From positions 11,710 to 75,709 of IMG/VR virus record IMGVR_UViG_3300037455_000372: a stretch of DNA of 64,000 bases; one strand, 5' to 3'. The notes under the pieces are model-generated. The model was not told the DNA's origin. It searched no databases and saw nothing but the letters and a program-made list of their open reading frames with translations. This stretch comes from a virus. Taxonomy: Duplodnaviria; Heunggongvirae; Uroviricota; Caudoviricetes. Every line of letters begins with the position of its first letter. Within the stretch, counting starts at the first letter, position 1. Below are positions 17,559-56,358 of this stretch, in pieces. Position numbers and translations under genes: made by a program.

Positions 17559-18055
17559 CCAGCCCAGTGTTTCATAAGCAGTTTAGCTGCAGCTGGACTT
17601 AAATTATACACTACCGTGTCCGGACATTCTATCACACCCAACGCCTTGTGGGAAATCAAGATACGCCACACTCCCCAGCGCATCAACGAAGGCATTATTT
17701 CTTCCGGAATGTCATTGAATTTGCAAGTCTTGAACCGAGGATCCCTACCGTGCTTGTCACCCCACAGACGAGCGGTAAAGCTCCACTCTTGGTTAATCAT
17801 ATCCTGCCTAGAGTTCAGCATAGTACATATAGAATACATATCCTTGTATGTCTTGCTGTACACATCGGTTATGAATATGTATTCGCCCGGCCAGAACCAG
17901 AGACATAGATAGTTACGGTCGGGGTACATATGCTCGTGACCAATGTTGTTTCGCATATAGACGCGAGAAAAGGACAGTACCTTTCGTACTGCCCCTACAA
18001 GAGCACAAGTCCACAGGACCCACTTAACTATTTCCAACAGCTTTCTTATCTTCAT
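17555..18055 (-). CDS. membrane-anchored protein, paralog family 1 (member B)
   Basis: N-terminal TM helix; block EYIFITDVYSK. Confidence 0.55.
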   Translation of the reverse strand: MKIRKLLEIVKWVLWTCALVGAVRKVLSFSRVYMRNNIGHEHMYPDRNYLCLWFWPGEYIFITDVYSKTYKDMYSICTMLNSRQDMINQEWSFTARLWGDKHGRDPRFKTCKFNDIPEEIMPSLMRWGVWRILISHKALGVIECPDTVVYNLSPAAAKLLMKHWAG

Positions 18056-24841: not shown

Positions 24842-24883
24842 TTCATACACTCCATCGATACAGAGGAAATATAGCAAACTCCC

Positions 24884-33365: not shown

Positions 33366-33703
33366 TCAGAGCACATCACGCCGTGCTCCTTGAACCACTG
33401 GGCAACAATCTGACGATGGCAGAACTCGCCTTTAGGCTCGTAGCAAAGGAGAATCTTGTTGTCAAGCTCCTTGGCAAGCTCACGGGCGTCCATATGGTCG
33501 AGAACATCCTTGCGGAAGTCCTTCTCGAACTTTATCCGGTCGATAATTCCACGCTTGTAACACTCTACCAGACACATCGGAGGAGCCAGACGAATTTCAC
33601 GCGGACCGACGAACGCCGGGTGCGTGTGCTGCGCGATGGAAACCAGACGGTCGGCAAGTTCCGGATATTTCAAGACGGTATCGTAGTTGCTTGTATAAAT
33701 CAT
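33323..33703 (-). CDS. hypothetical Cys-rich protein (126 aa)
   Basis: minus ORF. Confidence 0.45.
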   Translation of the reverse strand: MIYTSNYDTVLKYPELADRLVSIAQHTHPAFVGPREIRLAPPMCLVECYKRGIIDRIKFEKDFRKDVLDHMDARELAKELDNKILLCYEPKGEFCHRQIVAQWFKEHGVMCSEWEVGCEEDQCENL

Positions 33704-34959: not shown

Positions 34960-34961
34960 AA

Positions 34962-35663
34962 TTACTGCCTATAATCCTTCACATCTACAAAGTCGCGAAC
35001 CTTCACCTTGCAGATAACACGGTCTCCATTATTCGTAAACAGCTCGACGCGAGGACGCAATACCAATCCTTCCATTCGGTGGGTCGGGTCGAGCCAAGAA
35101 TAAGGACGGCTCTGGACAAACTCGATAGCGTCCAAGAACGGCATCAGCTCCTCGTGCGGACACATCATACCGAACTTTTTGGACACGTTATGGACCGGAT
35201 CACGGTTCCAGAACTTGCCGTCACAACAGATATCGTACATAATGAACTCGCCGTCCGGATATCCGTAATGATGGTTGTAGTCCTTGGAAACGCCTTCGCC
35301 GAAGATAAACGCCGGCTGTTCGCCGAACACTTCTTCGAGAACGGACTCAAATTGCGGAGTTCCGAACCGCTCGTTCAAGTAAGCCAGATAGCGTGGACAG
35401 AATGTCGACTTGTCGGTATGCCCGACGAAGCTGACACGGTCGCCATCCCACTTAATGCCGACGTTGGTGCCGTCAATCTTCTCGGACGCATACATCAATA
35501 CATTCTCTTCATAGAAGATTGGCATCCACGGCTTTGCGTAAATCGTTTTATCTACCAGACGGTCGTCGGGACACTTACGACCGAACGGTGCCGAAATTTT
35601 TCCATAATAATGTGCCATAATTAAAAACTCTGCGTAACTACGTTGAAGTTGATCTCGAACCAA
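34962..35663 (-). CDS. ATP-dependent RNA ligase, Rnl2-like (nucleotidyltransferase superfamily)
   Basis: adenylylation motif I KIDGTNVGI; size ~230 aa; alternative start ATG 35618 just after upstream stop. Confidence 0.55.
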   Translation of the reverse strand: MVRDQLQRSYAEFLIMAHYYGKISAPFGRKCPDDRLVDKTIYAKPWMPIFYEENVLMYASEKIDGTNVGIKWDGDRVSFVGHTDKSTFCPRYLAYLNERFGTPQFESVLEEVFGEQPAFIFGEGVSKDYNHHYGYPDGEFIMYDICCDGKFWNRDPVHNVSKKFGMMCPHEELMPFLDAIEFVQSRPYSWLDPTHRMEGLVLRPRVELFTNNGDRVICKVKVRDFVDVKDYRQ

Positions 35664-38306: not shown

Positions 38307-38984
38307 TTAACCCATATCGGCACCCTTATAAGACGGTATCACATAACCGTCGTTAGGATTGACAAAAAGCTTCTTTTCCCCATTAAGCGTCTTCTTCACA
38401 AGGTCAACCGCATCGGCCTTATTGATCACGCAAGGATTCTTCTTGTGAGTAGCCCAAGAATAGCAACGGTCACGCGTCTGGTCATCGTTAATGAACACAT
38501 AGCGATGGCCGAAATCGTCTACGTGTACCGTCGACTTGAATGACTGCACCCATTCACGGTTGTGTTCAACCGTAAACGGATTGTCACACAATACGTAGAC
38601 GTTCCACAAGATGTCACCTTCATTCATCTGGTTCTCGTCCAGTCGGTTCAAGTCAGTCTGGAAGATGATTTTCCCAGCCGGAGGAGTAGATGCGGACTTG
38701 GCACGGCCTTTCTTCACGTCGAAATCCGCAGGGACGATGTCCAAGAAGATGTTCAAGTTCACGCAGCCATATCGTGCGATAAGCGTAGATTGGTTCTGGT
38801 TAACCTTGTCAGCTTGCAAAAGCATCTGTCGTAAGTCTTCGGCGGAGTATTCCTTGCCGCCGACGGAAACCTTTGAACCGAAGTCCAACGTGGCCACATA
38901 GGCTACGTAACGATTATACTCGTGGTCGGCCACGATAGTATAAGTACGGTTAGGAACTGGATAAGAAGTGTTAATCGCGTACAT
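38307..38984 (-). CDS. hypothetical protein (225 aa)
   Basis: minus ORF. Confidence 0.5.
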   Translation of the reverse strand: MYAINTSYPVPNRTYTIVADHEYNRYVAYVATLDFGSKVSVGGKEYSAEDLRQMLLQADKVNQNQSTLIARYGCVNLNIFLDIVPADFDVKKGRAKSASTPPAGKIIFQTDLNRLDENQMNEGDILWNVYVLCDNPFTVEHNREWVQSFKSTVHVDDFGHRYVFINDDQTRDRCYSWATHKKNPCVINKADAVDLVKKTLNGEKKLFVNPNDGYVIPSYKGADMG

Positions 38985-40204
38985 TATTTCCCCTTGGCTT
39001 TCTCTTCGGAAGCCTTGAAATTGTAAATCGGCTTGATGGTCGTTATGATATCAGCCGTCTCTTGGATGTTACGGACGATCTCGCCCATCGGCTTGTAGGC
39101 CATCGGCGACTCGTCGATAGTGCCAGAACCAACACATGTCGTGTAGATACCTTCCATCGAAGACTTGAACGCCTCCATCGTCAAGGTCTCCTTCGCCTTG
39201 GAACGAGACATCAAACGTCCGGCACCGTGCGGTCCGGAGAAGTTCCACTCTTCGTTGCCCTTACCGCGAACCAAGAGCGAGCCGTCCCTCATATTCATCG
39301 GAATCAAGGCGACCTCGTCCTTCTGCAAGGAAATGGATCCCTTGCGCAGAATCATATTGTCCAAGTCGATGTAGTTATGCACGGTACAGAACTTGTCCAA
39401 GATGTGATGCTTCTTGATGCCCATACAGTCGATGATGACATCCATCATCGCCTCACGGTTCCACCAAGCGAAATCCTGAGCAATCTTCATATCGTGCAAG
39501 TAGTTCTGCAGCAATTCGCCTTCCAAGTAGGCCAGCTCGTCCGGAATCGGACACTTTGCCGCTTGGTTCGCCTTCAAGACCGTCTCAATCTCGGACTGGC
39601 GGCCCTGAGCCTTCAACCGCTCGATAACCTCTTGCTTCGTCTGACGCTGGTTCTTGTGGTACTTGATTGCTTCCTTCTGGTAGAAATTACACACCTCAAT
39701 ACCCAAGTGGCGCGAGCCGGAATGAATTACGATGTATTTATTACCATCGGAATCCACATCAATTTCGCCGAAATGATTTCCCGAACCAAGAGTCCCAATC
39801 GATAACATCAGTTTTTCGGCATTGACTGGAGCAATCAATTCGTCCAAAGCAACACGTTCAGTAAAGCGGTGCTTCTTCGTACGGTGGTTCATCCCAGACG
39901 GAATTTCGTTATGCCACACCTTGTCGAACTTCGGCAAGTCGAGGATGCAGTCCTTCGAGACCTTCATCACGAGCATACCACACCCGATGTCGACGCCGAC
40001 CAAGTTCGGCACGACACGGTCGACAATCTTCATCGTCAACCCAATAACACAGCCAGTACCGGCGTGGCAGTCCGGCATAATGGCGAAATGAGAACCTTCA
40101 GCAAACTTCTGGTTCATCAAGTTCAAAATCTGCTTGTAGGCGGCATCTTCCAAGATGTCAGTATACACCTTCGCCGTGTTAAACTTTCCTACGATTTCAA
40201 TCAT
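38984..40204 (-). CDS. rtcB: RtcB-family RNA ligase (3'-phosphate/5'-OH)
   Basis: MPDCHAGTGCVIG, GSGNHF, NFSGPHGAGR motifs in RtcB order; start set to MIEIVGKF (AGAGG RBS) because promoter motif 40229-40239 lies inside the longer ORF. Confidence 0.8.
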   Translation of the reverse strand: MIEIVGKFNTAKVYTDILEDAAYKQILNLMNQKFAEGSHFAIMPDCHAGTGCVIGLTMKIVDRVVPNLVGVDIGCGMLVMKVSKDCILDLPKFDKVWHNEIPSGMNHRTKKHRFTERVALDELIAPVNAEKLMLSIGTLGSGNHFGEIDVDSDGNKYIVIHSGSRHLGIEVCNFYQKEAIKYHKNQRQTKQEVIERLKAQGRQSEIETVLKANQAAKCPIPDELAYLEGELLQNYLHDMKIAQDFAWWNREAMMDVIIDCMGIKKHHILDKFCTVHNYIDLDNMILRKGSISLQKDEVALIPMNMRDGSLLVRGKGNEEWNFSGPHGAGRLMSRSKAKETLTMEAFKSSMEGIYTTCVGSGTIDESPMAYKPMGEIVRNIQETADIITTIKPIYNFKASEEKAKGK

Positions 40205-40208
40205 AATT

Positions 40209-40478
40209 CTAACCTCTGTAATTGGGGTAAATATAGCAACACGGAGGATAAATGTCAATACGCCAATCGCCTAATTGGTATGGCAAGTCCTTGGTCATTC
40301 GCATATACTCTTTCATCGGGTCTACCGGGTCAGTAAACATATTCTTGTCCATCGCCGGGACTGCTATCAAGACCAGAAGCATCGAAGTCCACAACGCTGT
40401 GCGCCTAATAGTACACTTCAACGCAACCAGAAAGGTTACCGTAAACCAAATAAGTGCCAATACCGCTTGATCTAGCAT
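40209..40478 (-). CDS. small membrane protein (89 aa, two TM segments)
   Basis: hydrophobic helices; minus ORF between operon members. Confidence 0.4.
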   Translation of the reverse strand: MLDQAVLALIWFTVTFLVALKCTIRRTALWTSMLLVLIAVPAMDKNMFTDPVDPMKEYMRMTKDLPYQLGDWRIDIYPPCCYIYPNYRG

Positions 40479-43071: not shown

Positions 43072-43163
43072 TGGACCGACTCAGACTCGAACTGAGAAGT
43101 ACATTTTACTGTACGTGTGCCGGGTTATGAGTCCGGTGCCTTAACCAATTTGGCGATCGGTCC
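43072..43163 (-). tRNA. type-II-like tRNA (long variable stem-loop GTACA-GTAAAA-TGTAC) with anticodon CAT
   Basis: acceptor GGACCGA/TCGGTCC perfect, T-arm CTCAG-TTCGAGT-CTGAG, anticodon hairpin CCGG(A)-CTCATAA-(C)CCGG; about 92 nt. Confidence 0.5.
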
Positions 43164-44050: not shown

Positions 44051-44138
44051 AAATTCCTCTCAGATGACGAAATTATAGCAATCCGGACTACGGATGTCAA
44101 CGGTTGAACGAATAATTGGCCTTTTTTATATTGGTGGT

Positions 44139-44336
44139 ATGAAAAAGACATTGCTTCTATCAGTTACCATTCTACTAGCCGGTTGCGGAACCGGGACTAG
44201 CATAACCAACCACATCGAACTCTACCATCCGGTATCGTGCCTAGACGCCAAGTGCGACATCGATTCCAAATGCACCGACCAAGACTGCAAAATCAAGGTT
44301 CAGTGCTGCTGTGTAGACAAAAATGACCAGCAATAA
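44139..44336 (+). CDS. small Cys-rich lipoprotein (MKKTLLLSVTILLAGC)
   Basis: signal peptide + LAGC lipobox; GGTGGT before ATG. Confidence 0.5.
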   Translation: MKKTLLLSVTILLAGCGTGTSITNHIELYHPVSCLDAKCDIDSKCTDQDCKIKVQCCCVDKNDQQ

Positions 44337-44349
44337 GCTGGCCTCTTAG

Positions 44350-44422
44350 TAGCGGGAGACGGACTCGAACCGACGACGCCGAGCATATGAAACTCGTGAG
44401 CTACCAACTGCTCTATCCCGCG
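44350..44422 (-). tRNA. tRNA-Met (anticodon CAT; initiator-like C1 mismatch and GGTCGTCGGTTCG block)
   Basis: acceptor CGCGGGA/TCCCGCT with C1-U72 mismatch, anticodon arm CGAGT-TTCATAT-GCTCG. Confidence 0.6.
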
Positions 44423-44469
44423 ATGTACTGTAAGTTTATATATAGCTAAAATTTTTTAAATTGTCAAGC

Positions 44470-45093
44470 CTACAGCAAGAAAAAATCGACCATACTCCGT
44501 CGCCTCACTTGGACGTGAAGATGCTCATTCGCATATCCAGCGTCCTCGTGAAGAACGAAATATCCGCCGCCAAGGATTTCCTTAACCGCGTCGACTATCT
44601 GACGCTTAGTCACGAAGTCGACATCCTTGATCCGGAAATCCACGGCCTCGCCACGGTAATGAGCCGAGTTCTTGGCGTGGCCGCCAAAGTCGTTGGCACT
44701 GGTTATCAACGGCTTGAACTGCGGATCGTTCATCATCTTCCGGTATACCGAAACCACCTTGAATACCGCCGTGTCCATACGCGGCGTAATGTCCATCTTC
44801 ACGGTAGACTTCTGCCTTGTCTGGCTCATAATCAGCCTATGCAGATCGATACCACCCGGCAGCTGCTCCAGCTCACCGGCGACCTCGGTAGAAACCCTAT
44901 CGAAGAAATGGACTTTCGGCTTGTGCTTGTACAGCCCGTAACCCATAACCGCGCTAAATACGAGTATGCCCAAGATGGTAAGGCATTGACCCATATGCTT
45001 CACGCAGTAACGGATAGCGAAGTTGGCAAGCAATACTGAACCTAGCGAAGCCAAAATCGCCAAGCCCATAAGATGAAGAACTAGTGTTATCAT
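44470..45093 (-). CDS. membrane-anchored M15-family (VanY/L-Ala-D-Glu peptidase-like) peptidase, possible endolysin
   Basis: two N-terminal TM helices; Zn-ligand pattern SAHYRGEAVD ... NEHLHV. Confidence 0.55.
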   Translation of the reverse strand: MITLVLHLMGLAILASLGSVLLANFAIRYCVKHMGQCLTILGILVFSAVMGYGLYKHKPKVHFFDRVSTEVAGELEQLPGGIDLHRLIMSQTRQKSTVKMDITPRMDTAVFKVVSVYRKMMNDPQFKPLITSANDFGGHAKNSAHYRGEAVDFRIKDVDFVTKRQIVDAVKEILGGGYFVLHEDAGYANEHLHVQVRRRSMVDFFLL

Positions 45094-45653
45094 ACGTTAG
45101 CGTCCAAGTAGCCGTGGATTTCGTGTTCGGTATAACCCTCGGCCAGCATTTCATTATACCATTCGTTGAAATGTACGTCATAGGGGGATGACTTCATCAG
45201 TATGTAAGGACTGAACGTGGTCTTGCCACGTACGGACATTTCCAGCGAAGCGAATATGTTCCGCCAGAAAGAATCGTCCGGGTTGATGTCCAGCCGCTTT
45301 ACTACCGTCGACTTGACCTTTACCAAGTCGCTGCAACCGTAGCGAGCCTTCTGCCACAATTCCTTCGCATAGTTGGCGCGTTCCAACGCCCGCTCGGCGA
45401 AGTAGGGAATCGGTTGCAAGTGTACGACGTGGTGCTCGGCCTCGCCGTGCTGGTGTGCAGCGGAAGCCGCGACATTGCCGAAGTACGGCAACAAGTCGCG
45501 ATATTCCTTCCCGGTTACTCGTATCCCACCGGCGTCGATTTCCCAATGGCTCAACTTTACAAGGTCAACTGACTTGTCGTCGCCGATGACCTTGTAGTGC
45601 ATATTGAGCAAATCGTACAAGTCGCTCTTGCCAGAATACTTGGACATAGTCAC
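45090..45653 (-). CDS. hypothetical protein (187 aa)
   Basis: minus ORF. Confidence 0.5.
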   Translation of the reverse strand: MTMSKYSGKSDLYDLLNMHYKVIGDDKSVDLVKLSHWEIDAGGIRVTGKEYRDLLPYFGNVAASAAHQHGEAEHHVVHLQPIPYFAERALERANYAKELWQKARYGCSDLVKVKSTVVKRLDINPDDSFWRNIFASLEMSVRGKTTFSPYILMKSSPYDVHFNEWYNEMLAEGYTEHEIHGYLDANV

Positions 45654-45655
45654 CC

Positions 45656-47689
45656 CTATTCCAGAGAAGCTACCCAGTCGTTGTAGCTCGCGTCACTGGG
45701 CATACGCCAGTCGGCACGAGGAGACAGCGACAACGTACCGACCTTCGGTCCGTCAGGGATGCAACTGCGCTTGAACTGCTGGGTGAAGAAACGGCGCAAG
45801 AAGAGTTCAAGAGCCTTCTTCAGCTCGTCGTGCTTGTCCCTGCCGAACGCATATTCGGCCAGATACAGCATCTTCGACGGCGTGGCACCGTACTTCACGA
45901 AGTGGTACAAGTAGAAGTCGTGAATATCGTAGGATCCGAGGATGCTCTCCGTCTTCTGCGCAATATTGCCGTTTGCGTCAGCCGGAAGCAGCTCAGGAGA
46001 TACCGGCGTGTCCAAGATGTCTCTGAGAACATCGGCCAGATTCTTCTTGCTGTCATCGCCTTCGCCAATCATACGGTCGACAATGCTGTACTTGTATTCG
46101 TTGTCGGCCTTGTCGGCATACCAGTTCACGATATAACGAACAAGCGTCTTCGGAATGTCGCAGTTCACCGAGTACATCGACATATGGTCGGCGTTATAGG
46201 TACACCAGCCAAGAGCGATTTCGGACAAGTCTCCGGTTCCGATAACCATACCTTGTTCCTTGTTGGCCAAGTCCATAAGAATCTGGGTACGTTCACGAGC
46301 TTGCGTATTCTCGTATGTCACGTCGGTAACCTTCGGATCGTGTCCGATATCGTCGAAGTGCTGCATACAAGCCTTGGAAATGTTAATCGTACGGAGTTCC
46401 ACACCAAGAGCCTCAGCCATTTCTACGGCATTATTCTTGGTACGCTTGGTTGTACCAAACCCAGGCATTGTCACCGCAAGGATGTCGGAAACCGGTCTGC
46501 CCAAGAGCTTGTACGTCTCGTATACGACCAGCAAGGCCAACGTAGAGTCAAGACCGCCAGACAACCCGATTACGGAACGCTTCACTCCGGTTTCAAGACG
46601 CTTGGCAAGGCCAGCACACTGGATATTGAAGATTTCACGGCAACAGTCATTGCGAACATTGGCAGCACTCGGCACAAACGGAGTCGAAGAAACATAGCGG
46701 TATTTCAGCTCCTTATTTGTCGGAACTGGGTCAATATCGCGGAATTTAATGGGGTGATAAACACGAAAACGGTTAACAACATCGCTATGTCCGAAATCTT
46801 GGAACGAACCTTCGCTGATACGCTGCATATTCAAGCGAGCCGCGTCAATATCTGCATAGATAATCTCGGTATCGCGAGAGAACTTATTGCACTCGGCCAT
46901 AAGGCTGCCGTTCTCGGCAATCATCAGGTGGCCGCTGCAAACCATATCAGTTGTCGATTCGTGAACACCAGCGGAGGCGTACACGTAACCAGCCATACAA
47001 CGGGCGGACTGATTCGTCACAAGGTCGCGACGATAGTTGGCCTTGCCTACCAATGCGTCACTGGCAGACAAGTTCAGAATCACGTTCGCACCGGCAAGAG
47101 CAAGTTCACCACTCGGCGGAGCCGGAGTCCACAAGTCTTCACACAATTCTACGCCGAGGCGTAATTCTGTATTGTTGGCAAACCCAAGCAAGTTGGTAAT
47201 TACCGGTTCATAGGCACCGACCCGGCACGTAAGAGCGTGACCGAACTCGTCACCCTTGAGCAATTCATAGCCGCTAGAAAAATGACGTTTTTCGTAAAAT
47301 TCGCGCTGGTTAGGCAAGTGAATCTTAGGCGTTACCGCGACAACCGATCCATTTTGGATAAGCACGGCGCAGTTGTACAAACGACCGAAAATCCGAAGCG
47401 GCGCACCCACAGCAATGATGACGTTTTTAAACGTATCACTGTTCATTTGGGTCATCCGGCAAATGTCAGTAATACCGTCGATTGTCTTCTGAAGAAGCGT
47501 CTCTTGATGGAAGAGGTCGTTACAAGTATAACCGGTGATACTCAGTTCCGGGAATACGACAACCGTTGCGCCGTTCTTTACGGCTTCCTTGGTCGCTTTC
47601 TTGATTTCAGCCACGTTGTATTCAGTATCTGCCACCTTGAGCTTGGGGCATACTGCAGCAAATCTGTAAAATCCGAATCCGTTATTCAT
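45656..47689 (-). CDS. nadE: glutamine-dependent NAD+ synthetase (CN-hydrolase + NadE domains)
   Basis: N-domain nitrilase-type FPELSITGY / K / LCEDLW triad; C-domain PP-loop GLSGGLDSTL; 677 aa typical for the two-domain enzyme. Confidence 0.8.
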   Translation of the reverse strand: MNNGFGFYRFAAVCPKLKVADTEYNVAEIKKATKEAVKNGATVVVFPELSITGYTCNDLFHQETLLQKTIDGITDICRMTQMNSDTFKNVIIAVGAPLRIFGRLYNCAVLIQNGSVVAVTPKIHLPNQREFYEKRHFSSGYELLKGDEFGHALTCRVGAYEPVITNLLGFANNTELRLGVELCEDLWTPAPPSGELALAGANVILNLSASDALVGKANYRRDLVTNQSARCMAGYVYASAGVHESTTDMVCSGHLMIAENGSLMAECNKFSRDTEIIYADIDAARLNMQRISEGSFQDFGHSDVVNRFRVYHPIKFRDIDPVPTNKELKYRYVSSTPFVPSAANVRNDCCREIFNIQCAGLAKRLETGVKRSVIGLSGGLDSTLALLVVYETYKLLGRPVSDILAVTMPGFGTTKRTKNNAVEMAEALGVELRTINISKACMQHFDDIGHDPKVTDVTYENTQARERTQILMDLANKEQGMVIGTGDLSEIALGWCTYNADHMSMYSVNCDIPKTLVRYIVNWYADKADNEYKYSIVDRMIGEGDDSKKNLADVLRDILDTPVSPELLPADANGNIAQKTESILGSYDIHDFYLYHFVKYGATPSKMLYLAEYAFGRDKHDELKKALELFLRRFFTQQFKRSCIPDGPKVGTLSLSPRADWRMPSDASYNDWVASLE

Positions 47690-48372
47690 TTCTTCTTAGC
47701 CTTCTTTTTAGGTTTAATGTCTTCGTTAGGGGTCCAGTTCTTCGGTAGGTCGTCCCAGAGCTTGCGGTTCTTCTTGCACCAGCTAAGGAACTCGTGAGTG
47801 TCGGGGAAAAGGTCAACGATGCCGATCGGCAACTGGTCTTTTACACAATCGTTCACGCTATAATGTATCAGCGGCTTATTGAGGTCGATGCGGTCGAGCA
47901 ACTTGCGGAATTGGTCTACAATTTGGCCAGCAAACTCGATTCCTCGCACGATTTCGCTGGTCTTAACCATACGACGGTCGTTACGATTGATGGAATCCTC
48001 GTACATTTTCTTCCAGTCCCACGTCGTACGGATATAGAGCAGCAAGTCGTACGGCGATATGACTTCCTTGCGCTTGACGATATCGCACATCAACGGTCCA
48101 GTCATTTCGAGAGCGTGCCGCATCTTGTGGATTTGTTCGTTGGTCTGTGCCGAAAACTTGGACACAATATCGGGCAGAAGTCCAGAGATGAACAACGTGT
48201 TTTCCGGAGAAATGTCGCACATCTCGTTGAGGAGGTGTTCGACAATCATCTTGCGACGGTCTTTACTCTGGATAATCGTATTCATCGCTTTGATTTCATC
48301 TGCGGTGAGCTTGTTCAGGTCGAAACAGTCGCGCAGATTCGTTCCAAGTCGACCACATACTGTATCGATCAT
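47686..48372 (-). CDS. hypothetical protein with Lys-rich C-terminal tail (KPKKKAKKK)
   Basis: ORF 47686..48444 trimmed to MIDTVCGRL, which abuts the upstream stop. Confidence 0.5.
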   Translation of the reverse strand: MIDTVCGRLGTNLRDCFDLNKLTADEIKAMNTIIQSKDRRKMIVEHLLNEMCDISPENTLFISGLLPDIVSKFSAQTNEQIHKMRHALEMTGPLMCDIVKRKEVISPYDLLLYIRTTWDWKKMYEDSINRNDRRMVKTSEIVRGIEFAGQIVDQFRKLLDRIDLNKPLIHYSVNDCVKDQLPIGIVDLFPDTHEFLSWCKKNRKLWDDLPKNWTPNEDIKPKKKAKKK

Positions 48373-48950
48373 TTCTTCTCCTTTTTCTTCTTTGCCTTTT
48401 TCTCGGCAGCTTTCGCCGTCTTCTGAGCCTTCCTGATGACCCAAGTGAACTTGTTGATAACCTCAAGTTCAATCTTGTTGATTGTAAGCTCGATTTTATC
48501 TTCGGGGATGACGGTGGCACTCGACAAGTGCTTGACCTTGTGACGCTTGAGTTCTTCTCCGGTACCGAAATCCACGTTCAACGCCGAGTAGTCTGGGTTT
48601 TTCCAAACCGAGATCAGACGGTCGAGAACCAGTTCGAATTCGTCGCCGCCAAGCCAGCGTTCAGCACCGACTACGTGAGCGATACGGTATTCGACGGACT
48701 TCGGCGAACGGTTCTGTTCATCTTCCTCGTACCAAGAGTGTCCCGGAATCTTAATCCAGTGGCCGACAACCGGCTCCAGCAAGTCTCGAATCTTGTTGCT
48801 GTCCTTGATTTCGTCAATCGAATGCAGCTCTTGTTCGAGACGTTGAATCTCGGCGAAATGTTCGTCGCGCATCTGCTGGAGCTTCTCTTGCGGGAGGTCG
48901 AGAAGCGACTTCTGGTAAGGGTCTGTAACTTTAACTTTCTTTATAGGCAT
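48369..48950 (-). CDS. hypothetical protein with Lys-rich C-terminal tail (KKAKKKKEKK)
   Basis: start MPIKKVK after GAGGAAA; variant motif GAATATAGCAA 48970-48980 upstream. Confidence 0.5.
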   Translation of the reverse strand: MPIKKVKVTDPYQKSLLDLPQEKLQQMRDEHFAEIQRLEQELHSIDEIKDSNKIRDLLEPVVGHWIKIPGHSWYEEDEQNRSPKSVEYRIAHVVGAERWLGGDEFELVLDRLISVWKNPDYSALNVDFGTGEELKRHKVKHLSSATVIPEDKIELTINKIELEVINKFTWVIRKAQKTAKAAEKKAKKKKEKK

Positions 48951-49024
48951 AGGCCATTTCCTCTGACTTGAATATAGCAATTTGCACCGATCTTGTCAAC
49001 ACTAAAATATCGAAATAAAACAAA

Positions 49025-49062
49025 AAAGCGGCCTCCGAAGAGACCGCTTCTTCAGCCTTATC
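49025..49062 (-). terminator. rho-independent terminator (minus strand): GCGGTCTC-TTCG-GAGGCCGC followed by TTTTTTGTTTTATTT
   Basis: GC-rich hairpin plus U-run read on the minus strand. Confidence 0.6.
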
Positions 49063-49587: not shown

Positions 49588-49725
49588 AAAAAGACAAGGT
49601 GCTATTCGCTTTACTTATCTGAGCCTAGTTCAGAGGTATAGGTTGTGTTGCTGTAAGCACCTTTAAACTCTTTTTGTCAAACATCAGATTCAGTCTCGCT
49701 GAATCATTACGAACCAAATATAGAT

Positions 49726-50274
49726 TTAGATTTTGAGGTTGTCAAGGGGTTTTGGTGAATTTTTATCGTTTTTCTTTCCGCCCAGCTTACCGTTTATATA
49801 ATTGGTCGCAATCGCGAAAACTGCGCCAGACGCCATTCCGATAAAATGGTTCATATGGCCGATCCCATCCGCCTTTCCGGTCGCCATAAGCTCCTGACCG
49901 CCATACGTCACCACGACAAACAATCCGCATAAAGAGAACATATGCTTGGAATCGGCCATCAAGTTCAGCATAAACAGTGCGAACACGAACGCCGACATAC
50001 CGATGCCGTACTGGTTCACCAGTCCCTGATACAGCGAATCCACCCAGCAAGTGAACAAGAAGGCCAGCAGATAGCTAACCTTGCCATAGCTGCGCTCCAC
50101 CATCGGACTCAAAACGGCAAACAGCATACTGTTGTTAAGCCAATGGTTAAAGTCGCCGTGCATAAAGGCCGACGTGACCATATTGTACGGAATGTCGCTC
50201 TTGCATAGCAGACCGACTAAGGACAGCACAATGAAAGTGACCGACAGTATCTCGTCCTTGAGCACATTAAGCAT
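49726..50274 (-). CDS. rhomboid-like intramembrane protein
   Basis: polytopic; HGDFNHWLNNSMLF (H..H..N block), GIGMSAF (GxSx), GHMNHFIGMASG (His region). Confidence 0.5.
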   Translation of the reverse strand: MLNVLKDEILSVTFIVLSLVGLLCKSDIPYNMVTSAFMHGDFNHWLNNSMLFAVLSPMVERSYGKVSYLLAFLFTCWVDSLYQGLVNQYGIGMSAFVFALFMLNLMADSKHMFSLCGLFVVVTYGGQELMATGKADGIGHMNHFIGMASGAVFAIATNYINGKLGGKKNDKNSPKPLDNLKI

Positions 50275-51138: not shown

Positions 51139-51576
51139 TTACCCCTTATAGAGCTGATACTTTTTGCTCAAAGTACGACTAGTCTCGTCGGGCAACGGCT
51201 TGAACCAGATTCCGACGCGGCAATACTTGTTGCCTTTCTCGTCTACGGCCTCCGGAGTCAGCTCCGTCAAGCAAGCGTCGTCGATAAAGTCATAGTCGGT
51301 TCCCTTGACCAGACCCATTTCCTTGGCGACATCCTCCACCTTCATCAAGTGGTTAAGATTCTTCGCCTCGCAGATGGTCTTGACGAACAGACCTTGGATA
51401 TACTCTTCCATCGTCTTTGTATCGAGTTCGAACGTCACTTGGTATACACCGTCGTCCTCCATCGAATTCGTGGAAATAAGGCGGGTCCAGTAACCCTCGG
51501 CACAGTGAGCCACCATCGCGGCAAGCTTACCGGCAGACAAATTCAAGTCCTTTCGGATGATAAATAAACGGCGCAT
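51139..51576 (-). CDS. PTH2-family peptidyl-tRNA hydrolase-like protein
   Basis: FIIRKDLNLSAGKLAAMVAHCAEG matches the PTH2 v.R.DL.m..GKiaAQ..HA opening block. Confidence 0.55.
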   Translation of the reverse strand: MRRLFIIRKDLNLSAGKLAAMVAHCAEGYWTRLISTNSMEDDGVYQVTFELDTKTMEEYIQGLFVKTICEAKNLNHLMKVEDVAKEMGLVKGTDYDFIDDACLTELTPEAVDEKGNKYCRVGIWFKPLPDETSRTLSKKYQLYKG

Positions 51577-52505
51577 TACTTCTCCGTCTTGTTATTAGTC
51601 TTCAACCATTCTTGGAAATACCAGAGCTGTCCACAACCGCCTCCGATGTCGTCCTGACCCGCCGGGTTGAACACACGGAGCGACACGCCACGGGAAAGCA
51701 AGGCATCCTTGAAGTTATTGATAACCTCAAGCTGACGGTCGATACTGGCGGCCACCGTCTCGTCCTTCGAGCAGATGACGCTCAAGGTCGTCTCCCATAC
51801 CTTCGGGTCGAACAGGTCTACCAAGCGTTCGGCATCCTCGACGGCGTTGTTGCCTTCGTGGACACAGTAGTTGTAAAACGGCTTTCTACCCACATAGGAC
51901 GCCCACATCTCGCCAAGAGAAGCGATCTGACGCAACGTGCTGGTCTTGGTCGGAATGAGCTTCGAACGGTTCTCGTCGGTGCTCTCGTGGACGGAGAACT
52001 GCAGTCCAACCTTGTCGATTTGCTTGGACAATTCGATGAACGACGGCATATTGTGGAGCGAGTCCCAAGTCGGTGCCGATGTCGACACCAGCAACGCGGC
52101 GTTCGGATATTTCTGGTTGAGACGCTTGATGGCACATTCCAGATTGATGTAGTTCATAAACGGCTCGCCCATCGACATAAACATAATCTGGAACTTCTTG
52201 ATTTCCTCGGTATGCGTGTCCTTGAGTACGGAGTCGGCGATCGCAGTCTCGACTTGCTGGACAATCTCGGACGCAGTCAAGTTGCGGACGAAGAACTTAC
52301 CCGTACCGCAGAAGGTACAGCCGACCGGGCAACCGCTCATAACGGAACAACAGATGACCGTGCGTTCCTTGTAGGATCCGTAACGGTACAGAACAGCCTC
52401 GGCGATAGCCGCCTTGCTATGGATGCCCGCATCTTCTTCCTTGGACCATTCGAAAACGTATTTCTTTACATTGGTGTCCGACGACTGGAAAACCTTGTAC
52501 TGCAT
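51576..52505 (-). CDS. RlmN/Cfr-family radical-SAM RNA methyltransferase (N-terminally short, 309 aa)
   Basis: CPVGCTFCGTGKFFVRNLTASEIVQQV (CX3CX2C plus RlmN FNRNL..EI..Q block), IMFMSMGEPFMN (GMGEP), C-terminal GGGCGQL (conserved methyl-carrier Cys). Confidence 0.75.
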   Translation of the reverse strand: MQYKVFQSSDTNVKKYVFEWSKEEDAGIHSKAAIAEAVLYRYGSYKERTVICCSVMSGCPVGCTFCGTGKFFVRNLTASEIVQQVETAIADSVLKDTHTEEIKKFQIMFMSMGEPFMNYINLECAIKRLNQKYPNAALLVSTSAPTWDSLHNMPSFIELSKQIDKVGLQFSVHESTDENRSKLIPTKTSTLRQIASLGEMWASYVGRKPFYNYCVHEGNNAVEDAERLVDLFDPKVWETTLSVICSKDETVAASIDRQLEVINNFKDALLSRGVSLRVFNPAGQDDIGGGCGQLWYFQEWLKTNNKTEK

Positions 52506-53009: not shown

Positions 53010-53086
53010 GAGCACTCGGACAGGCTCGAACTGTCGATCATGCGGTTGCGGCGCATTGCCTTTAAAAACCAACTTGGCTACGAGTG
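53010..53086 (-). tRNA. tRNA-Cys (anticodon GCA), extended D-loop
   Basis: acceptor GCACTCG/CGAGTGC, anticodon arm ATGCG-CCGCAAC-CGCAT, T-arm GACAG-TTCGAGC-CTGTC. Confidence 0.55.
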
Positions 53087-53091
53087 CTTAA

Positions 53092-53164
53092 ATATGGCGA
53101 CCCAGACTCGAACTGGGGTAAACGCTTTTAGGAGAAGCGCACATATCCAACTATGCTATCGCCA
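53092..53164 (-). tRNA. tRNA-Arg (anticodon CCT)
   Basis: acceptor GTGGCGA/TCGCCAT, anticodon arm CGCTT-CTCCTAA-AAGCG, T-arm CCCAG-TTCGAGT-CTGGG. Confidence 0.6.
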
Positions 53165-53168
53165 CATA

Positions 53169-53255
53169 ATACCGACGCCCAGACTCGAACTGGGATGGGA
53201 CTTGATGTCCCGGACGATTAGAAGTCGTCTGCACTATCCAATTATGCGACGCCGG
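53169..53255 (-). tRNA. type-II-like tRNA (18-nt variable stem-loop GGGAC-ATCAA-GTCCC) with anticodon TCT
   Basis: acceptor GCCGGCG/CGTCGGT, D-arm GCAT-AATTGGATA-GTGC, anticodon arm GACGA-CTTCTAA-TCGTC perfect, T-arm CCCAG-TTCGAGT-CTGGG. Confidence 0.5.
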
Positions 53256-53262
53256 CAAAAGA

Positions 53263-53598
53263 CTAACGCCTTACCGGTCTACACACGAACATACATCGGT
53301 CGCTTCCCCATAAAGTCTTGGGAGCATTACCGTCAAAACCACGGATGTCAATCGTGACAATACCGTCGGAATACTGGAAACCGTTGCCGTCGGCAATGCC
53401 TTCCACCTTTTCCGTGCCGGATTCAAATACAGAATAACCGAACGAGTTGCCTTCCCCGGCAACGTCGGAACCCTTCTGGCGAAGATACAGCTTCGCCTTT
53501 TCCATATCGCACCCGGTAGCCTCCAGTGCTTCCTTGCACAGAGCTACGCTGACTTGCGTCTGGTCACGGAGTTCCTTAATCTGTTCCAATGTTGCCAT
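53263..53598 (-). CDS. EF-Ts N-terminal (EF-Tu-binding, UBA-like) domain protein
   Basis: MATLEQIKELRDQTQVSVALCKEALEATGCDMEKAKLYLRQKG parallels EF-Ts N-term ...VKELRERTGAGMMDCKKAL.E..GD.E.A...LR.KG; only ~110 aa, no EF-Ts core; AAGGAA RBS before ATG 53598. Confidence 0.55.
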   Translation of the reverse strand: MATLEQIKELRDQTQVSVALCKEALEATGCDMEKAKLYLRQKGSDVAGEGNSFGYSVFESGTEKVEGIADGNGFQYSDGIVTIDIRGFDGNAPKTLWGSDRCMFVCRPVRR

Positions 53599-53656
53599 AG
53601 TTATTCCTTGCTTAATTCCTACAGAGTGACACTTCGGATAACCCCTCAACTTCGGA

Positions 53657-53872
53657 CTATACTAAATCCCAAAAGTTGTCTTGCAGAAGCTGCATATCTT
53701 CCGGATCCAAATCCTTCTGGTCGTTCAAGAACCGCTCCGCAAAGTCCTCAAGCTTCCGCTTCGCGGACCGTCTGAGCCGCTTGCGTCCCTTGTTGTGCTT
53801 CGGCGTACTGGTGTCGTGCTCGTGGTTGACATCGTCGGTTCCGCGTTCTTTCGCCCAAATCTTGTCACCCAT
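53657..53872 (-). CDS. hypothetical basic protein (71 aa)
   Basis: minus ORF. Confidence 0.4.
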   Translation of the reverse strand: MGDKIWAKERGTDDVNHEHDTSTPKHNKGRKRLRRSAKRKLEDFAERFLNDQKDLDPEDMQLLQDNFWDLV

Positions 53873-54098
53873 AGTCTTCTTCCTTCGGCGGTTCCATCGT
53901 TGCCACCAGCTTTATACCAACCAGTTTAGGCTGTGGCGGCAGATTCTTCGGCGTCAAATCGAGTGCTAGATAACAGGGTTCTGTAAAAGTGAACTTATAC
54001 TCGAACTTTTCCGGAGGATATCTCCTCTGGACTTCCGCTATTTGTGCTTTCGCTCGTGGTGACAAGCGATTCTCGATTTGTTTATCCATATCCGTCAC
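53865..54098 (-). CDS. hypothetical protein (77 aa)
   Basis: minus ORF. Confidence 0.4.
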   Translation of the reverse strand: MTDMDKQIENRLSPRAKAQIAEVQRRYPPEKFEYKFTFTEPCYLALDLTPKNLPPQPKLVGIKLVATMEPPKEEDYG

Positions 54099-54172
54099 GA
54101 AAGACTTGAACTTTCACGCCTCGCGGCACCAGATCCTAAATCTGGCGGGTCTACCTGTTCCCCCAGTAACGG
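54091..54172 (-). tRNA. tRNA-Leu (anticodon TAG), type II
   Basis: acceptor CCGTTAC/GTGACGG, anticodon arm CCAGA-TTTAGGA-TCTGG, long variable arm, T-arm GAAAG-TTCAAGT-CTTTC. Confidence 0.6.
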
Positions 54173-54175
54173 GAA

Positions 54176-54246
54176 TTGAGCTACCAGGATTCGAACCTAG
54201 AATACCGGAATCAAAATCCGATGTGTTACCGTTACACCATAGCTCA
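54176..54246 (-). tRNA. tRNA-Gln (anticodon TTG)
   Basis: U1-A72 acceptor TGAGCTA/TAGCTCA, anticodon arm TCGGA-TTTTGAT-TCCGG, T-arm CTAGG-TTCGAAT-CCTGG. Confidence 0.6.
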
Positions 54247-54260
54247 GAATAAATATATTA

Positions 54261-55505
54261 CTATTCAGGTTTAATGTCAAACTGGTTCAATTTACGTCGG
54301 AAATACTTCCCTTTAAATTCATCTGGAAACCGGTTTAAAGTCGCTTCAATAACTCTTTTGGTCAAATGAGTTACTTGTTCGACTTTTCCTACCCAACCAA
54401 ATTTCATTAAATCGACACCGCTATTCAGTATTAACTCTTTTCGGTGATTCCATTCTAAGTTAGGCACCCCCTTTCCATCGATATGCCCATCTACACGTAT
54501 TAAACCATTTTGTTCAGAAAGTTTCCGCTTACTCGCATATTCTTCGATTTCAACCTTACGCTTTTCTGAATTTCTAGGTGTAGTTTTATGTTTTTTAAGT
54601 ATAGCACCTTGATTAACTGGAACATAAATCTGAGGCAGAGTATTCGTAGTATTCGAAATAAATGCCTTAATGTAGGATGCAACGATTTGTTTACGATCAT
54701 CATCCGACAGTTTCTTATACAATTTCCAACGAATTCGTCCGATTAGAAACCACCCATTCTTAGCTAATTCGGCAGTCCGGTTTGCGTCATACTCCAACCC
54801 ATCTGGTGTGTAATGAGATTCGCCATCAACTTCAAAGTATACTTTATTTGTTAAATTAGCAAAATCCAATAAATATCCACACGCACGATAGTTATTCCGC
54901 CACACAACGGTAGAATTCAATTCCTTTACTAATATATCATAAAAATACTGTTCAGCATAACTACGATGAATATGCGGATTAACCCACGTAGAACTACCAC
55001 GACCGTCTGCAATTTGTTTCTTCCGAGATTCGCTCAATTTATGACGCGTTTCTTCTGAACAAGGTTTCCTTTTCAATGTTCCATCAAGAATCCGTTGTCT
55101 AACATTCAACAAAGTTTTACGATGAATATCTGGGTCATACGTTCTACCCAAAGAATCAACCGGTAACTGACGTTTCGCATCACATTCCAAATAATGTTTA
55201 GCTAACTTACGCTTGCTTTCACAAACACCCAAACAATATTTACAGACCCAACCCCGGCTAGATTCAGTAGACCCTTTATGTCTATACTTATCCGAACAAT
55301 ATTTACCGTGTTCATCTATCCTGTGCCTATCACGATCTCGGCTCGTTTTAAAAAAGTTATGGCATATCGGGCATTCCCACGAATATGGTTTAGGTCTATT
55401 TTTGATAATATCCGCGTGCTCAATATGATGATGTTTACGCAATTCGTCTCGTGTACGGCAAGGAAACCCACATTTCGGACATATCCATTTCTTTTGTAAC
55501 TGCAT
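54261..55505 (-). CDS. homing-endonuclease-like protein: N-terminal C2H2 zinc fingers + C-terminal Vsr/DUF559-like PD-(D/E)xK nuclease fold
   Basis: CPKCGF..H..HH and CPICHNFF..H..H fingers; YFEVDGESHYTPDGLEYDANRTAELAKNGWFLIGRIRW resembles Vsr-like endonuclease core; strongly AT-rich versus flanks; variant promoter GTATAGCAAT 55531-55540. Confidence 0.5.
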   Translation of the reverse strand: MQLQKKWICPKCGFPCRTRDELRKHHHIEHADIIKNRPKPYSWECPICHNFFKTSRDRDRHRIDEHGKYCSDKYRHKGSTESSRGWVCKYCLGVCESKRKLAKHYLECDAKRQLPVDSLGRTYDPDIHRKTLLNVRQRILDGTLKRKPCSEETRHKLSESRKKQIADGRGSSTWVNPHIHRSYAEQYFYDILVKELNSTVVWRNNYRACGYLLDFANLTNKVYFEVDGESHYTPDGLEYDANRTAELAKNGWFLIGRIRWKLYKKLSDDDRKQIVASYIKAFISNTTNTLPQIYVPVNQGAILKKHKTTPRNSEKRKVEIEEYASKRKLSEQNGLIRVDGHIDGKGVPNLEWNHRKELILNSGVDLMKFGWVGKVEQVTHLTKRVIEATLNRFPDEFKGKYFRRKLNQFDIKPE

Positions 55506-55674
55506 AAAACCTCAATAAAGAATGTCCTCGGTATAGCAATATTGTGGCACTCTGCATATACCGAGGACATCGAAAACTTTATTGGTTTCTACAAGACCGT
55601 GAGTGCCACCTAACGCTCTTATATACCAGTTTATATGTCCTAAATTAGTTCAATTTAATTTTAATTTCAATTAG

Positions 55675-55748
55675 TCCCCGGAGAAGGAGTCGAACCTTCA
55701 AATTAGTGGTTTTGAATCACTCGCCTATGCCAATTCGGCTATCTGGGG
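55675..55748 (-). tRNA. 74-nt class-I-shaped tRNA with anticodon CAA (Leu codon UUG) but no long variable arm
   Basis: acceptor CCCCAGA/TCCGGGG, anticodon hairpin AGTG(A)-TTCAAAA-(C)CACT, T-arm GAAGG-TTCGACT-CCTTC. Confidence 0.45.
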
Positions 55749-55754
55749 TTATAG

Positions 55755-55828
55755 TCCACCGAGAAGGAATCGAACCTTCAAAACCACGACTCTGAATCGT
55801 GTACCTATGCCAGTTCGGTTATCGGCGG
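55755..55828 (-). tRNA. 74-nt class-I-shaped tRNA with anticodon CAG (Leu codon CUG) but no long variable arm
   Basis: acceptor CCGCCGA/TCGGTGG, anticodon arm CACGA-TTCAGAG-TCGTG perfect, T-arm GAAGG-TTCGATT-CCTTC; paralog of previous gene. Confidence 0.5.
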
Positions 55829-55837
55829 ATAAATTAG

Positions 55838-55908
55838 AGCATCATTCGAGACTCGAACTCGAACCAGCAGAGTGGAAATCTGCGAGGCGACCATTACCCC
55901 AATGATGC
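55838..55908 (-). tRNA. tRNA-Gly (anticodon TCC)
   Basis: acceptor GCATCAT/ATGATGC, anticodon arm GCAGA-TTTCCAC-TCTGC, T-arm TCGAG-TTCGAGT-CTCGA. Confidence 0.6.
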
Positions 55909-55912
55909 ATAG

Positions 55913-56006
55913 TGCGGGTAGGGGGATTCGAACCCAAATTCCGACTCCGCGATTAAAAGTCGCGTACTCTTGGCGTAGAACGCACTACCAGCTGAGTTAT
56001 ACCCGC
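55913..56006 (-). pseudogene. 94-nt tRNA-like element: perfect acceptor GCGGGTA/TACCCGC and Lys-type anticodon arm CGCGA-CTTTTAA-TCGCG, but a 17-nt insertion after the D-arm and a weak T-stem
   Basis: hand fold; cannot be made canonical. Confidence 0.35.
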
Positions 56007-56085
56007 ATAATTCGCAGCTGATAGGCAGCTGTCACCTTTATAATCGTTTCAATTTAAGTTTCTTCATTGTCGATTTCTCCTATAG

Positions 56086-56169
56086 TCTCCCAAGTCGGAC
56101 TTGAACCGGCACGCTATTACTAGCAAGGGATTTTAAGTCCCCAGTGTCTACCTATTCCACCACTGGGAG
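56086..56169 (-). tRNA. tRNA-Leu (anticodon TAA), type II
   Basis: acceptor CTCCCAG/TTGGGAG, anticodon arm GGGGA-CTTAAAA-TCCCT, long variable arm. Confidence 0.6.
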
Positions 56170-56181
56170 CAAGTTGTTTAG

Positions 56182-56264
56182 TCTCGATGGCTGGACTTGA
56201 ACCAAGCACTCTGTTACGAACCAGCCCCTCAAGCTGGCGGGTCTACCAATTCCCCCACATCGAG
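56182..56264 (-). tRNA. tRNA-Leu (anticodon GAG), type II
   Basis: acceptor CTCGATG/CATCGAG, anticodon arm CCAGC-TTGAGGG-GCTGG, long variable arm. Confidence 0.6.
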
Positions 56265-56275
56265 ATAAAAGTTAG

Positions 56276-56346
56276 AGCACCTATCCGGATTCGAACCGGA
56301 GCTTTCTCACAGGCAATGAGAAGTGCTACCACTACATCATAGGTGC
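56276..56346 (-). tRNA. tRNA-Gly (anticodon GCC)
   Basis: acceptor GCACCTA/TAGGTGC, anticodon arm TCTCA-TTGCCTG-TGAGA, T-arm CTCCGG-TTCGAAT-CCGGAT. Confidence 0.6.
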
Positions 56347-56358
56347 ATAAAATGTTAG

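Follow-up and report, generated by a model that had tools for sequence, protein, structure and literature searches.

Here we describe nadE, a gene for a glutamine-dependent NAD+ synthetase carried on a 64,000-nucleotide stretch of viral DNA (IMG/VR record IMGVR_UViG_3300037455_000372, positions 11,710 to 75,709; hereafter the window, from whose first letter all positions are counted). By its selection, composition and synteny, nadE is a live and native gene of the element that bears it, which is well supported as a huge phage. Its role is probably that of an auxiliary metabolic gene supplying NAD+ at the terminal step of synthesis, rather than that of a self-contained pathway for NAD+ reconstitution. 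The gene and its two domains are placed as follows.

45656..47689, minus strand: nadE, complete open reading frame (ORF) for a 677-residue glutamine-dependent NAD+ synthetase of the EC 6.3.5.1 type (ORF and NCBIfam NF002730)
46832..47653, minus strand: N-terminal nitrilase-type glutaminase domain, residues 13-286 (Pfam CN_hydrolase, E 5.5e-27)
45659..46654, minus strand: C-terminal PP-loop NAD synthetase domain, about residues 346-677 (Pfam NAD_synthase over residues 366-520, E 9.9e-25)

The reading frame is uninterrupted and occupies exactly these coordinates. A first-pass annotation, made by a model from the letters alone, had proposed a full two-domain NadE with a nitrilase-type glutaminase and an SGGLDS PP-loop, and the comparisons made here confirm it in every respect. 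On the NCBIfam equivalog NF002730, 'NAD(+) synthase', whose curated cutoff is 473 bits, the protein scores 817 over profile positions 10-671 of 677, and the crystal structure of the Mycobacterium tuberculosis glutamine-dependent NadE (PDB 3DLA) aligns from end to end, with residues 5-674 of the phage protein (E 5e-133). In the glutaminase domain the catalytic triad E48/K122/C183, which corresponds to the FPEL, PK and CED motifs of the M. tuberculosis enzyme in the 3DLA alignment, is invariant across 46 aligned relatives. The PP-loop (S377-GGLDS-382) is likewise intact, its S, G, G, D and S positions being invariant in the 46 sequences, and the motifs GTGDLSE, YNADHMS, FKRS, PDGPK and SPRADWR are kept in them with the exception of a few conservative changes. 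From this identity and integrity, the product is likely to be a functional glutamine-dependent NAD+ synthetase.

The phage protein shares with the M. tuberculosis enzyme (3DLA/3SEQ) and with chromosomal Fibrobacter NadE the two-domain layout, a length class of 651-680 residues, the triad, the PP-loop and the C-terminal motifs. It differs from bacterial NadE in five residues inserted behind the QDF motif (near residue 300), found otherwise only in the related element-borne protein P0001, and in a longer loop at residues 528-548. The genomic settings also differ: the phage gene lies amid ORFans on a huge phage-like element, whereas chromosomal Fibrobacter nadE is surrounded by bacterial housekeeping genes.

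Against four relatives, the ratio of non-synonymous to synonymous substitution rates (dN/dS, Nei-Gojobori) is 0.09-0.17 for the whole gene and about 0.1 in each catalytic domain. Codon usage in nadE is the third most typical among 53 window genes, and its GC content (0.507) is near that of the window (0.492). The part that evolves fastest is the inter-domain linker (residues 300-360), with a dN/dS of about 0.26-0.32. Together with the fact that phages do repurpose PP-loop enzymes, this linker could be taken to mean that the protein is an amidotransferase redirected to a substrate other than NaAD (nicotinic acid adenine dinucleotide), for instance nicotinic acid mononucleotide (NaMN), which the Francisella NadE uses, or some modified nucleotide. 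Such a redirection is, however, very improbable: the protein is 69-71% identical to chromosomal Fibrobacter NadE (about 69% to the nearest homologs that bear a name, which are Fibrobacter NAD+ synthases), the equivalog score is far over its cutoff, and all catalytic and C-terminal motifs are invariant between element-borne and bacterial copies.

When one genome per GTDB species was considered, the top NadE matches (63-68%) were all from Fibrobacter metagenome-assembled genomes of sheep, cattle and horse gut, except for one, and the next tier of cellular matches (Lentisphaerae and others) reached 58% at most. The exception, a 19.7-kb contig filed under 'Prevotella sp. ruminal_MAG_415' (JBGVBD010000178.1; L035), is a mis-binned phage fragment and not Prevotella DNA, since over 13 ORFs its proteins are 89-99% identical to those of an IMG/VR huge-phage contig (L006). 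Between the Fibrobacter contigs and the element, nadE is the sole gene in common. In a tree built by neighbour joining, with cellular sequences as outgroups and 200 bootstrap replicates, the element-borne NadEs (that of the window, P0001-P0010, the IMG/VR loci L006 and L007, and P0070, whose genomic context is ORFan-rich and phage-like) form one clade with 99.5% bootstrap support; this clade is sister to that of Fibrobacter (98.5%), and both together are supported at 100%. Identity across the phage clade is 67-92%. Monophyly of the element-borne proteins and their sister relationship to Fibrobacter argue for one old capture from the Fibrobacter lineage, which in turn indicates Fibrobacter as the host. 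The simplest reading would be that this single capture was retained while the phage clade diversified.

That nadE belongs to the element, and that the element is a phage, can be seen from its relatives. A recurring gene order, comprising a rhomboid gene, two small ORFs, nadE, a 185-residue ORF, a C5 DNA methylase and RtcB, is common to at least six independent assemblies from different samples. The syntenic contigs include two from Logan (25 and 46 kb), two ENA scaffolds (261 kb, and 393 kb for ERZ28653829 scaffold_1), JAEEGH010000309.1 from NCBI (406.8 kb) and a Logan/ENA contig of 475 kb that carries P0006. As contigs, the last four are longer than the 200 kb asked of a jumbo-phage genome, the window itself being 64 kb long. 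Further relatives are catalogued in IMG/VR, among them IMGVR_UViG_3300037512_000782; on two such contigs, of 348 and 52 kb, the NadEs are 67% and 75% identical. The window also carries 39 tRNA genes recognized by ARAGORN and two recognized by Rfam only (53011-53087 and 55913-56006), all on the minus strand, in an array that spans 36649-60042, is densest at 53011-60042 and covers nearly all amino acids. Three of the tRNAs (43072-43163, 53169-53257 and 58445-58534) are unusually long, and introns or long variable arms are possible.

A 669-residue protein (61875-63884, minus strand) contains two copies of a GGI(K/R)IGY...AYVNVP motif common to proteins of crAss-like phages, one of which is annotated as 'head fiber protein'; a 493-residue protein (60384-61865, minus strand) always adjoins the fibre-like protein in other contigs. 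Both are probably virion fibre genes. In a DNA comparison with INPHARED no close annotated phage relative was found, and the large unknown proteins were matched only through short fibre motifs.

Most window ORFs, including most of the large ones, have no Pfam or PHROG match, and no capsid, portal or terminase gene was recognized in the 64-kb window with PHROGs and Pfam; for this reason the phage identity is indirect. These two facts are what would speak for a non-viral origin: the contig could be chimeric or mis-binned and the ORF bacterial, or the element could be a giant plasmid or other non-viral replicon. The recurring synteny, the fit of codon usage and GC to the surroundings and the purifying selection make a chimeric assembly or a bacterial contamination very unlikely. 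Furthermore, chromosomal Fibrobacter nadE contexts are unrelated, relatives are catalogued in IMG/VR, PHROG matches include a RuvC-like resolvase and an RNA ligase, about 41 tRNAs stand in a single-strand array, and the 669-residue protein shares its repeat motif with a crAss-like phage protein, so that a non-viral replicon is very unlikely. The phage setting assumed in the first-pass annotation is thus upheld, albeit indirectly, by the tRNA array, the 400-475 kb syntenic contigs, the IMG/VR relatives and the fibre-like protein, to which an M15-type peptidase in the nadE block can be added.

What could a single NAD+ enzyme offer to such a phage? NadE converts NaAD, ATP and glutamine into NAD+, AMP, pyrophosphate and glutamate. 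In the mechanism that we favour, nadE would have been taken once from the Fibrobacter lineage, by the common ancestor of a group of Fibrobacter-associated phages that are very large (about 400-475 kb) and rich in tRNAs, and purifying selection would have acted on it since. In the infected cell, the nitrilase-type domain would hydrolyse glutamine and the ammonia would be channelled to the PP-loop domain, which would adenylate NaAD with ATP and then amidate it to NAD+. The phage would in this way dispose of extra capacity, under its own control, at the final step of NAD+ synthesis, keeping NAD+ available through a long and demanding infection, with NaAD presumably provided by the host NadD. A buffering against NAD+ loss would be a by-product, depending on the PncA, PncB and NadD of the host or on its de novo synthesis. 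Among the processes that use up NAD+ are the replication of phages, RNA repair and ADP-ribosylation (Iyer et al. 2021).

Whether nadE stands alone separates a lone terminal step from a complete pathway. The search for partners used hidden Markov models (HMMs) on about 74 ORFs of the window; a second, independent set of gene calls, for which Pfam assignments had been precomputed, covered about 15.7-36.6 kb of it, and look-ups extended about 8-10 kb past each end. No NadD/NMNAT (CTP_transf_like), PncB/NAMPT (NAPRTase), PnuC or NadR-type protein was detected in the window ORFs, the independent gene calls or the extensions. Similarly, the 10-kb surroundings of nadE gave no NAD-pathway partner, either here or in the relatives L002, L005, L100, L006/L104, L007/L105 and L011. 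The statement of the first-pass annotation that no NMNAT or NAMPT partner is recognizable in the window is borne out by these scans, and the three flanking ORFs that it singled out for inspection (45090..45653, 47686..48372 and 48369..48950) have no Pfam, NCBIfam or PHROG match. Altogether, about 84 kb were scanned, i.e., about a fifth of a genome that probably exceeds 400 kb, and nadE is the sole NAD+ pathway gene recognized in them.

One further candidate partner was considered. A P-loop protein of the AAA_28 family (23867-24877), a family that includes the NadR kinase domain, has a homolog beside nadE in distant huge-phage contigs (L010/L133 and L120, from one metagenome). A function as NadR-like ribosylnicotinamide kinase was given low weight, as the protein is devoid of a HIGH nucleotidyltransferase domain and has no NadR match in the PDB. 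Its best PHROG is 'thymidylate kinase', and its neighbours are a metallophosphoesterase and a RuvC-like gene, a setting in which a kinase of RNA or DNA ends or of nucleotides is at least as likely.

Jumbo phages of the gut have been reported to encode NAD+ synthesis genes including nadE, as in the pncB-nadD-nadE cluster of Kuafu_71, and the name 'NAD-jumbo phage' was given to those in which one pathway or more, NAD+ salvage or Preiss-Handler, is represented by all its genes; the role proposed for such genes is to raise the NAD+ supply for phage needs (PMC11662467). The element studied here resembles them in being probably a jumbo or huge phage, in coming from the animal gut and in carrying nadE. 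It differs in that Kuafu_71 has pncB and nadD, whereas nadE is alone in the window, in about 8-10 kb beyond its ends and next to nadE in the relatives. Moreover, the host indicated here is Fibrobacter, which is not mentioned in the main text of that work, the Kuafu clade having been assigned to Bacteroidota (PMC11662467).

A profile-guided scan of about 2.9 million IMG/VR contigs, limited by the pattern used, returned 36 loci with a two-domain NadE, a lower bound, so that the enzyme is rare there (at least 36 loci, eight of them on contigs over 200 kb). At eight of the 36 loci, the gene directly 3' of nadE encodes a HIGH-motif nucleotidyltransferase with homology to the NadD/NMNAT-like protein found in L008; the lineage of the window has no such neighbour.

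These precedents bear on the idea that the phage might possess a complete Preiss-Handler route (pncB-nadD-nadE), or another NAD+ pathway, with the remaining genes elsewhere in its genome of about 400 kb, which would make it a NAD-jumbo phage in the published sense (PMC11662467). The clusters of other gut jumbo phages, the downstream nucleotidyltransferase at eight of the 36 loci and the coverage of about a fifth of the genome speak for it. Nevertheless, partners in other phages adjoin nadE, and this lineage has none within 10 kb of the gene nor in the window and its extensions. We therefore regard a complete phage-encoded pathway as unlikely.

Another lone copy is known from a cultured phage. 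The 490-kb Agrobacterium jumbo phage Atu_ph07 encodes a 'NAD synthetase' (gp135; NC_042013) with no adjacent NAD-pathway gene. This protein, of 556 residues and encoded among tail-sheath genes, is 22.6% identical to the window NadE over residues 100-611, and it is an independent acquisition from a different bacterial lineage.

The first-pass annotation had seen in nadE a possible counter-defence gene. Reconstitution of NAD+ is indeed a proven principle in phages, where three NAD+ reconstitution pathways (NARPs) have been described: NARP1 (Adps and Namat) starts from ADP-ribose and nicotinamide, NARP2 (NAMPT and NMNAT) from nicotinamide, and NARP3 (PnuC and a NadR-like protein) from imported nicotinamide riboside (bioRxiv 10.1101/2024.02.11.579819; PMC13464706). 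By analogy, nadE could be a dedicated one-gene counterpart of NARP1-3, restoring NAD+ after depletion by TIR, SIR2 or SEFIR-type effectors through the host Preiss-Handler flux, which leads from nicotinamide to nicotinic acid, NaMN, NaAD and finally NAD+. We consider such a dedicated function unlikely.

The support for it is weak and circumstantial and lies mostly in the surroundings of the gene. The region is rich in conflict-type functions: about 41 tRNAs, RtcB, an RNA ligase (PF09414), the peptidyl-tRNA hydrolase PTH2 and a C5 DNA methylase. RtcB, the ligase and PTH2 belong to an RNA-repair and translation-maintenance set distributed over 23867-26847, 33323-35663, 38984-40258 and 51139-52505, all on the minus strand, which further comprises the AAA_28 kinase-like protein, the RuvC-like resolvase, a fusion of Nuc_deoxyri_tr2 with a metallophosphoesterase, a DUF488-N3a protein and a radical SAM methyltransferase resembling RlmN/Cfr (101 bits on TIGR00048, far under its cutoff). 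In a relative whose NadE is 75% identical (L007, IMG/VR), two ADP-ribose-processing genes lie within 10 kb of nadE, namely a NUDIX hydrolase 3.7 kb upstream (5509-6249, minus strand) and a microbial-type PARG 8 kb downstream (19993-20823, plus strand; GGG...QEE motif, Pfam E 1.3e-34). Both are absent from the window, none of whose ORFs has the PARG motif.

A second kind of evidence comes from recombination. In a comparison with the close relative L005, nucleotide identity is 95-99% in the flanks and falls to 58-85% at 46,100-47,680 and 47,880-48,480. The first of these segments covers nadE except for its C-terminal third, so that one breakpoint falls within the gene, and the second covers the N-terminal part of the upstream ORF. 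This recombination hot spot between near-identical relatives counts in favour of the counter-defence idea. The divergent segment nevertheless keeps a dN/dS of about 0.1 (about 0.10 in the glutaminase domain), with no sign of arms-race diversification, which argues for an allele swap and not for diversifying selection. The pattern suggests that homologous exchange among near-identical relatives continues at nadE.

The biochemistry of the enzyme also weighs against a dedicated counter-defence. NARP1-3 and the phage NadE have in common that they are phage-encoded enzymes with NAD+ as end product, but the former consist of two genes each, suffice by themselves and have been shown to overcome NADase defences, whereas the latter would perform the step from NaAD to NAD+ alone. 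None of the NARP-defining pairs was found in the window ORFs, the independent gene calls or the extensions, and NadE is not mentioned in the text of the NARP paper. The NARPs start from products of NADases or from imported nicotinamide riboside, whereas by family membership the substrate of NadE would be NaAD; it does not use ADP-ribose, nicotinamide or nicotinamide riboside and alone cannot recycle NADase products. As it acts on no NARP starting substrate, a lone NadE would raise NAD+ only at the pace of the NaAD supply of the host.

Conservation across the clade suits a housekeeping-like role equally well. Already in the first-pass annotation, counter-defence was set against the alternative that NadE might be common housekeeping cargo in related phages. 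That alternative holds in part: the gene is conserved syntenic cargo in every relative examined, all of them belonging to one old clade. Universality in the examined relatives within a single old clade is what would be expected of a standing metabolic gene.

A bolder version of the counter-defence idea, which we hold to be quite unlikely, is that a lone NadE constitutes a fourth, single-gene strategy of NAD+ restoration, fixed throughout the clade of Fibrobacter huge phages since the ancient capture. Overexpression of the terminal amidation, ATP-driven and effectively irreversible, would pull the PncA-PncB-NadD route of the host forward, and the nicotinamide freed by TIR or SIR2 effectors would be recycled to NAD+ faster than it is depleted. 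The co-diverging, coupled ORFan upstream would then be a lineage-specific accessory, e.g., a regulator or scaffold of NadE.

Several points weigh against the terminal-step supply role that we prefer. From the identity, integrity, conservation, origin and context of the gene it goes on to an activity, an expression and a physiological benefit that we infer, and the benefit presupposes that the NadE step is limiting for NAD+ synthesis in Fibrobacter. A pncB, a nadD or NAD+ consumers may exist elsewhere in the genome, and would turn the lone terminal step into a complete pathway. The neighbourhood, with its tRNAs, RtcB, RNA ligase and DNA methylase, and the NUDIX and PARG genes of L007, leans somewhat toward a defence-linked role. 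Finally, the window's lack of a recognized capsid, portal or terminase gene also counts here.

That jumbo phages carry nadE has already been reported from annotation (PMC11662467), and the cultured Atu_ph07 offers an example. The novelty of the present case is modest and consists in a Fibrobacter-associated huge-phage clade with a lone, host-derived nadE, monophyletic and long conserved, which is embedded in a coupled ORFan block and undergoes allele exchange through recombination among relatives. If the enzyme works as proposed, this clade would join the phages that take over part of the NAD+ metabolism of their hosts. It also provides a clean case of a host enzyme captured once and long kept, as seen from the monophyly, the dN/dS of about 0.1 and the homologous exchange of alleles. 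Furthermore, it sets a limit on the reading of phage NAD+ genes as counter-defence, in that carrying a gene related to NAD+ does not amount to possessing a pathway for its reconstitution, and NadE by itself depends on enzymes of the host. Since Fibrobacter is important for the breakdown of fibre in rumen and hindgut, a phage that controls the cofactor pool of this bacterium might, speculatively, influence how fibre is digested.

The gene is the third of five in a minus-strand block (ORF193, ORF228, nadE, ORF187 and an M15-like peptidase), whose other features are listed here from upstream to downstream.

49021..49054, minus strand: strong terminator-like hairpin with a 15-bp stem and a T-run, closing the upstream transcription unit
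48971..48999, minus strand: sigma-70-like promoter-like site, TTGACA-17-TATATT, TG-extended, 21 nt 5' of ORF193
48369..48950, minus strand: ORF193 (193 residues), first in the block, ATGA overlap with the next ORF, lysine-rich tail
47686..48372, minus strand: ORF228 (228 residues), upstream of nadE, its stop overlapping the nadE start (ATGA), lysine-rich tail
45090..45653, minus strand: ORF187, downstream of nadE, 187 residues from a GTG and more likely 185 from the ATG at 45647
44470..45093, minus strand: last ORF of the block (207 residues), M15/LAS-type peptidase-like (Pfam), SAHYRGEAVD motif, ATGA overlap with the previous ORF
44325..44422, minus strand: tRNA-Met (44349-44422) with its own consensus-like promoter, and a terminator-like hairpin (44325-44343), downstream of the block

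Start and stop codons overlap as ATGA at three of the block junctions, and 8 nt lie between nadE and the probable ATG start of the ORF that follows it; a GAGG ribosome-binding site comes after the promoter-like site at 48971..48999. The five genes thus appear to be translationally coupled and expressed from their own promoter-like site. A search for an NAD+ riboswitch upstream of the block gave none. ORF193 has no Pfam, NCBIfam or PHROG match and is syntenic in relatives. For ORF228 an all-helical protein is predicted (AlphaFold2, pLDDT, i.e., predicted local distance difference test, 66), with 18 close homologs, and for ORF187 a small sheet with a helical bundle (pLDDT 84, predicted template modelling score 0.74), with 10, in both cases all from this lineage. 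Neither model resembles a Rossmann-type nucleotidyltransferase or a phosphoribosyltransferase, and no known NAD-enzyme fold is suggested by them. The 207-residue ORF matches Peptidase_M15_2 (E 5.6e-6) and Peptidase_M15_3 (E 2.3e-3), both slightly under the gathering score; its hydrophobic N-terminus is, by inspection, a probable membrane anchor, and it is possibly a cell-wall peptidase.

Besides the site at 48971-48999, perfect or near-perfect sigma-70 promoters (TTGACA-17-TATAAT, some TG-extended) occur in the gaps at 44072-44100 and 49717-49745, and a further consensus promoter lies 5' of the tRNA-Met (about 44430-44465), all on the minus strand; such promoter and terminator signals are consensus matches, and the regional count of promoter-like sites is not above shuffled expectation. 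The intergenic sites suggest that the element may rely on strong host-type promoters.

Between a tRNA-Glu and the nadE block, the segment 49324-49461 (minus strand) gives a full-length, sub-threshold match to the Rfam family YrlA, a Y RNA-like RNA (39 bits against a gathering score of 69, E 5e-6), in a window that also encodes RtcB. What drives the match is a tRNA-like module whose parts come in permuted order (T-arm, closing stem, D-arm), whereas the stem for Ro binding fits poorly. The segment is the most conserved 200-nt bin in the comparison with L005 (99.5%) and was not found in more distant relatives.

Other cargo of metabolic appearance is encoded at 1066-1737 and 9673-10770, both on the plus strand, and in one further ORF within 1-39 kb; it consists of a type I 3-dehydroquinase (DHquinase_I, E 3.6e-22), an M29 aminopeptidase (E 1.9e-50) and a NIF3/DUF34 protein (E 2.7e-46). 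Genes resembling those of mobile elements are also present, namely a protein combining DUF559 (Vsr-like) with a zinc finger, within the tRNA array (54261-55505, minus strand) and a transposase-like ORF (5048-6349, plus strand). In relatives, TnpB/Cas12f-like (OrfB_IS605) insertions are found near nadE (L002, 4564-6303 and 15352-16647). About 7-8 kb past the right end of the window, a Peptidase_U49 gene of the Lit-like protease family and a NUMOD4 homing-endonuclease-like gene occur (L013, 2228-3037). Lastly, on the 134-kb contig that carries the sister-group NadE P0070 (L011; ERZ27257298 k141_4253956), a Cas8c/Csd1-family gene lies about 6 kb downstream of nadE (16229-17962), which hints at a phage-borne type I-C CRISPR-Cas system or a remnant of one.

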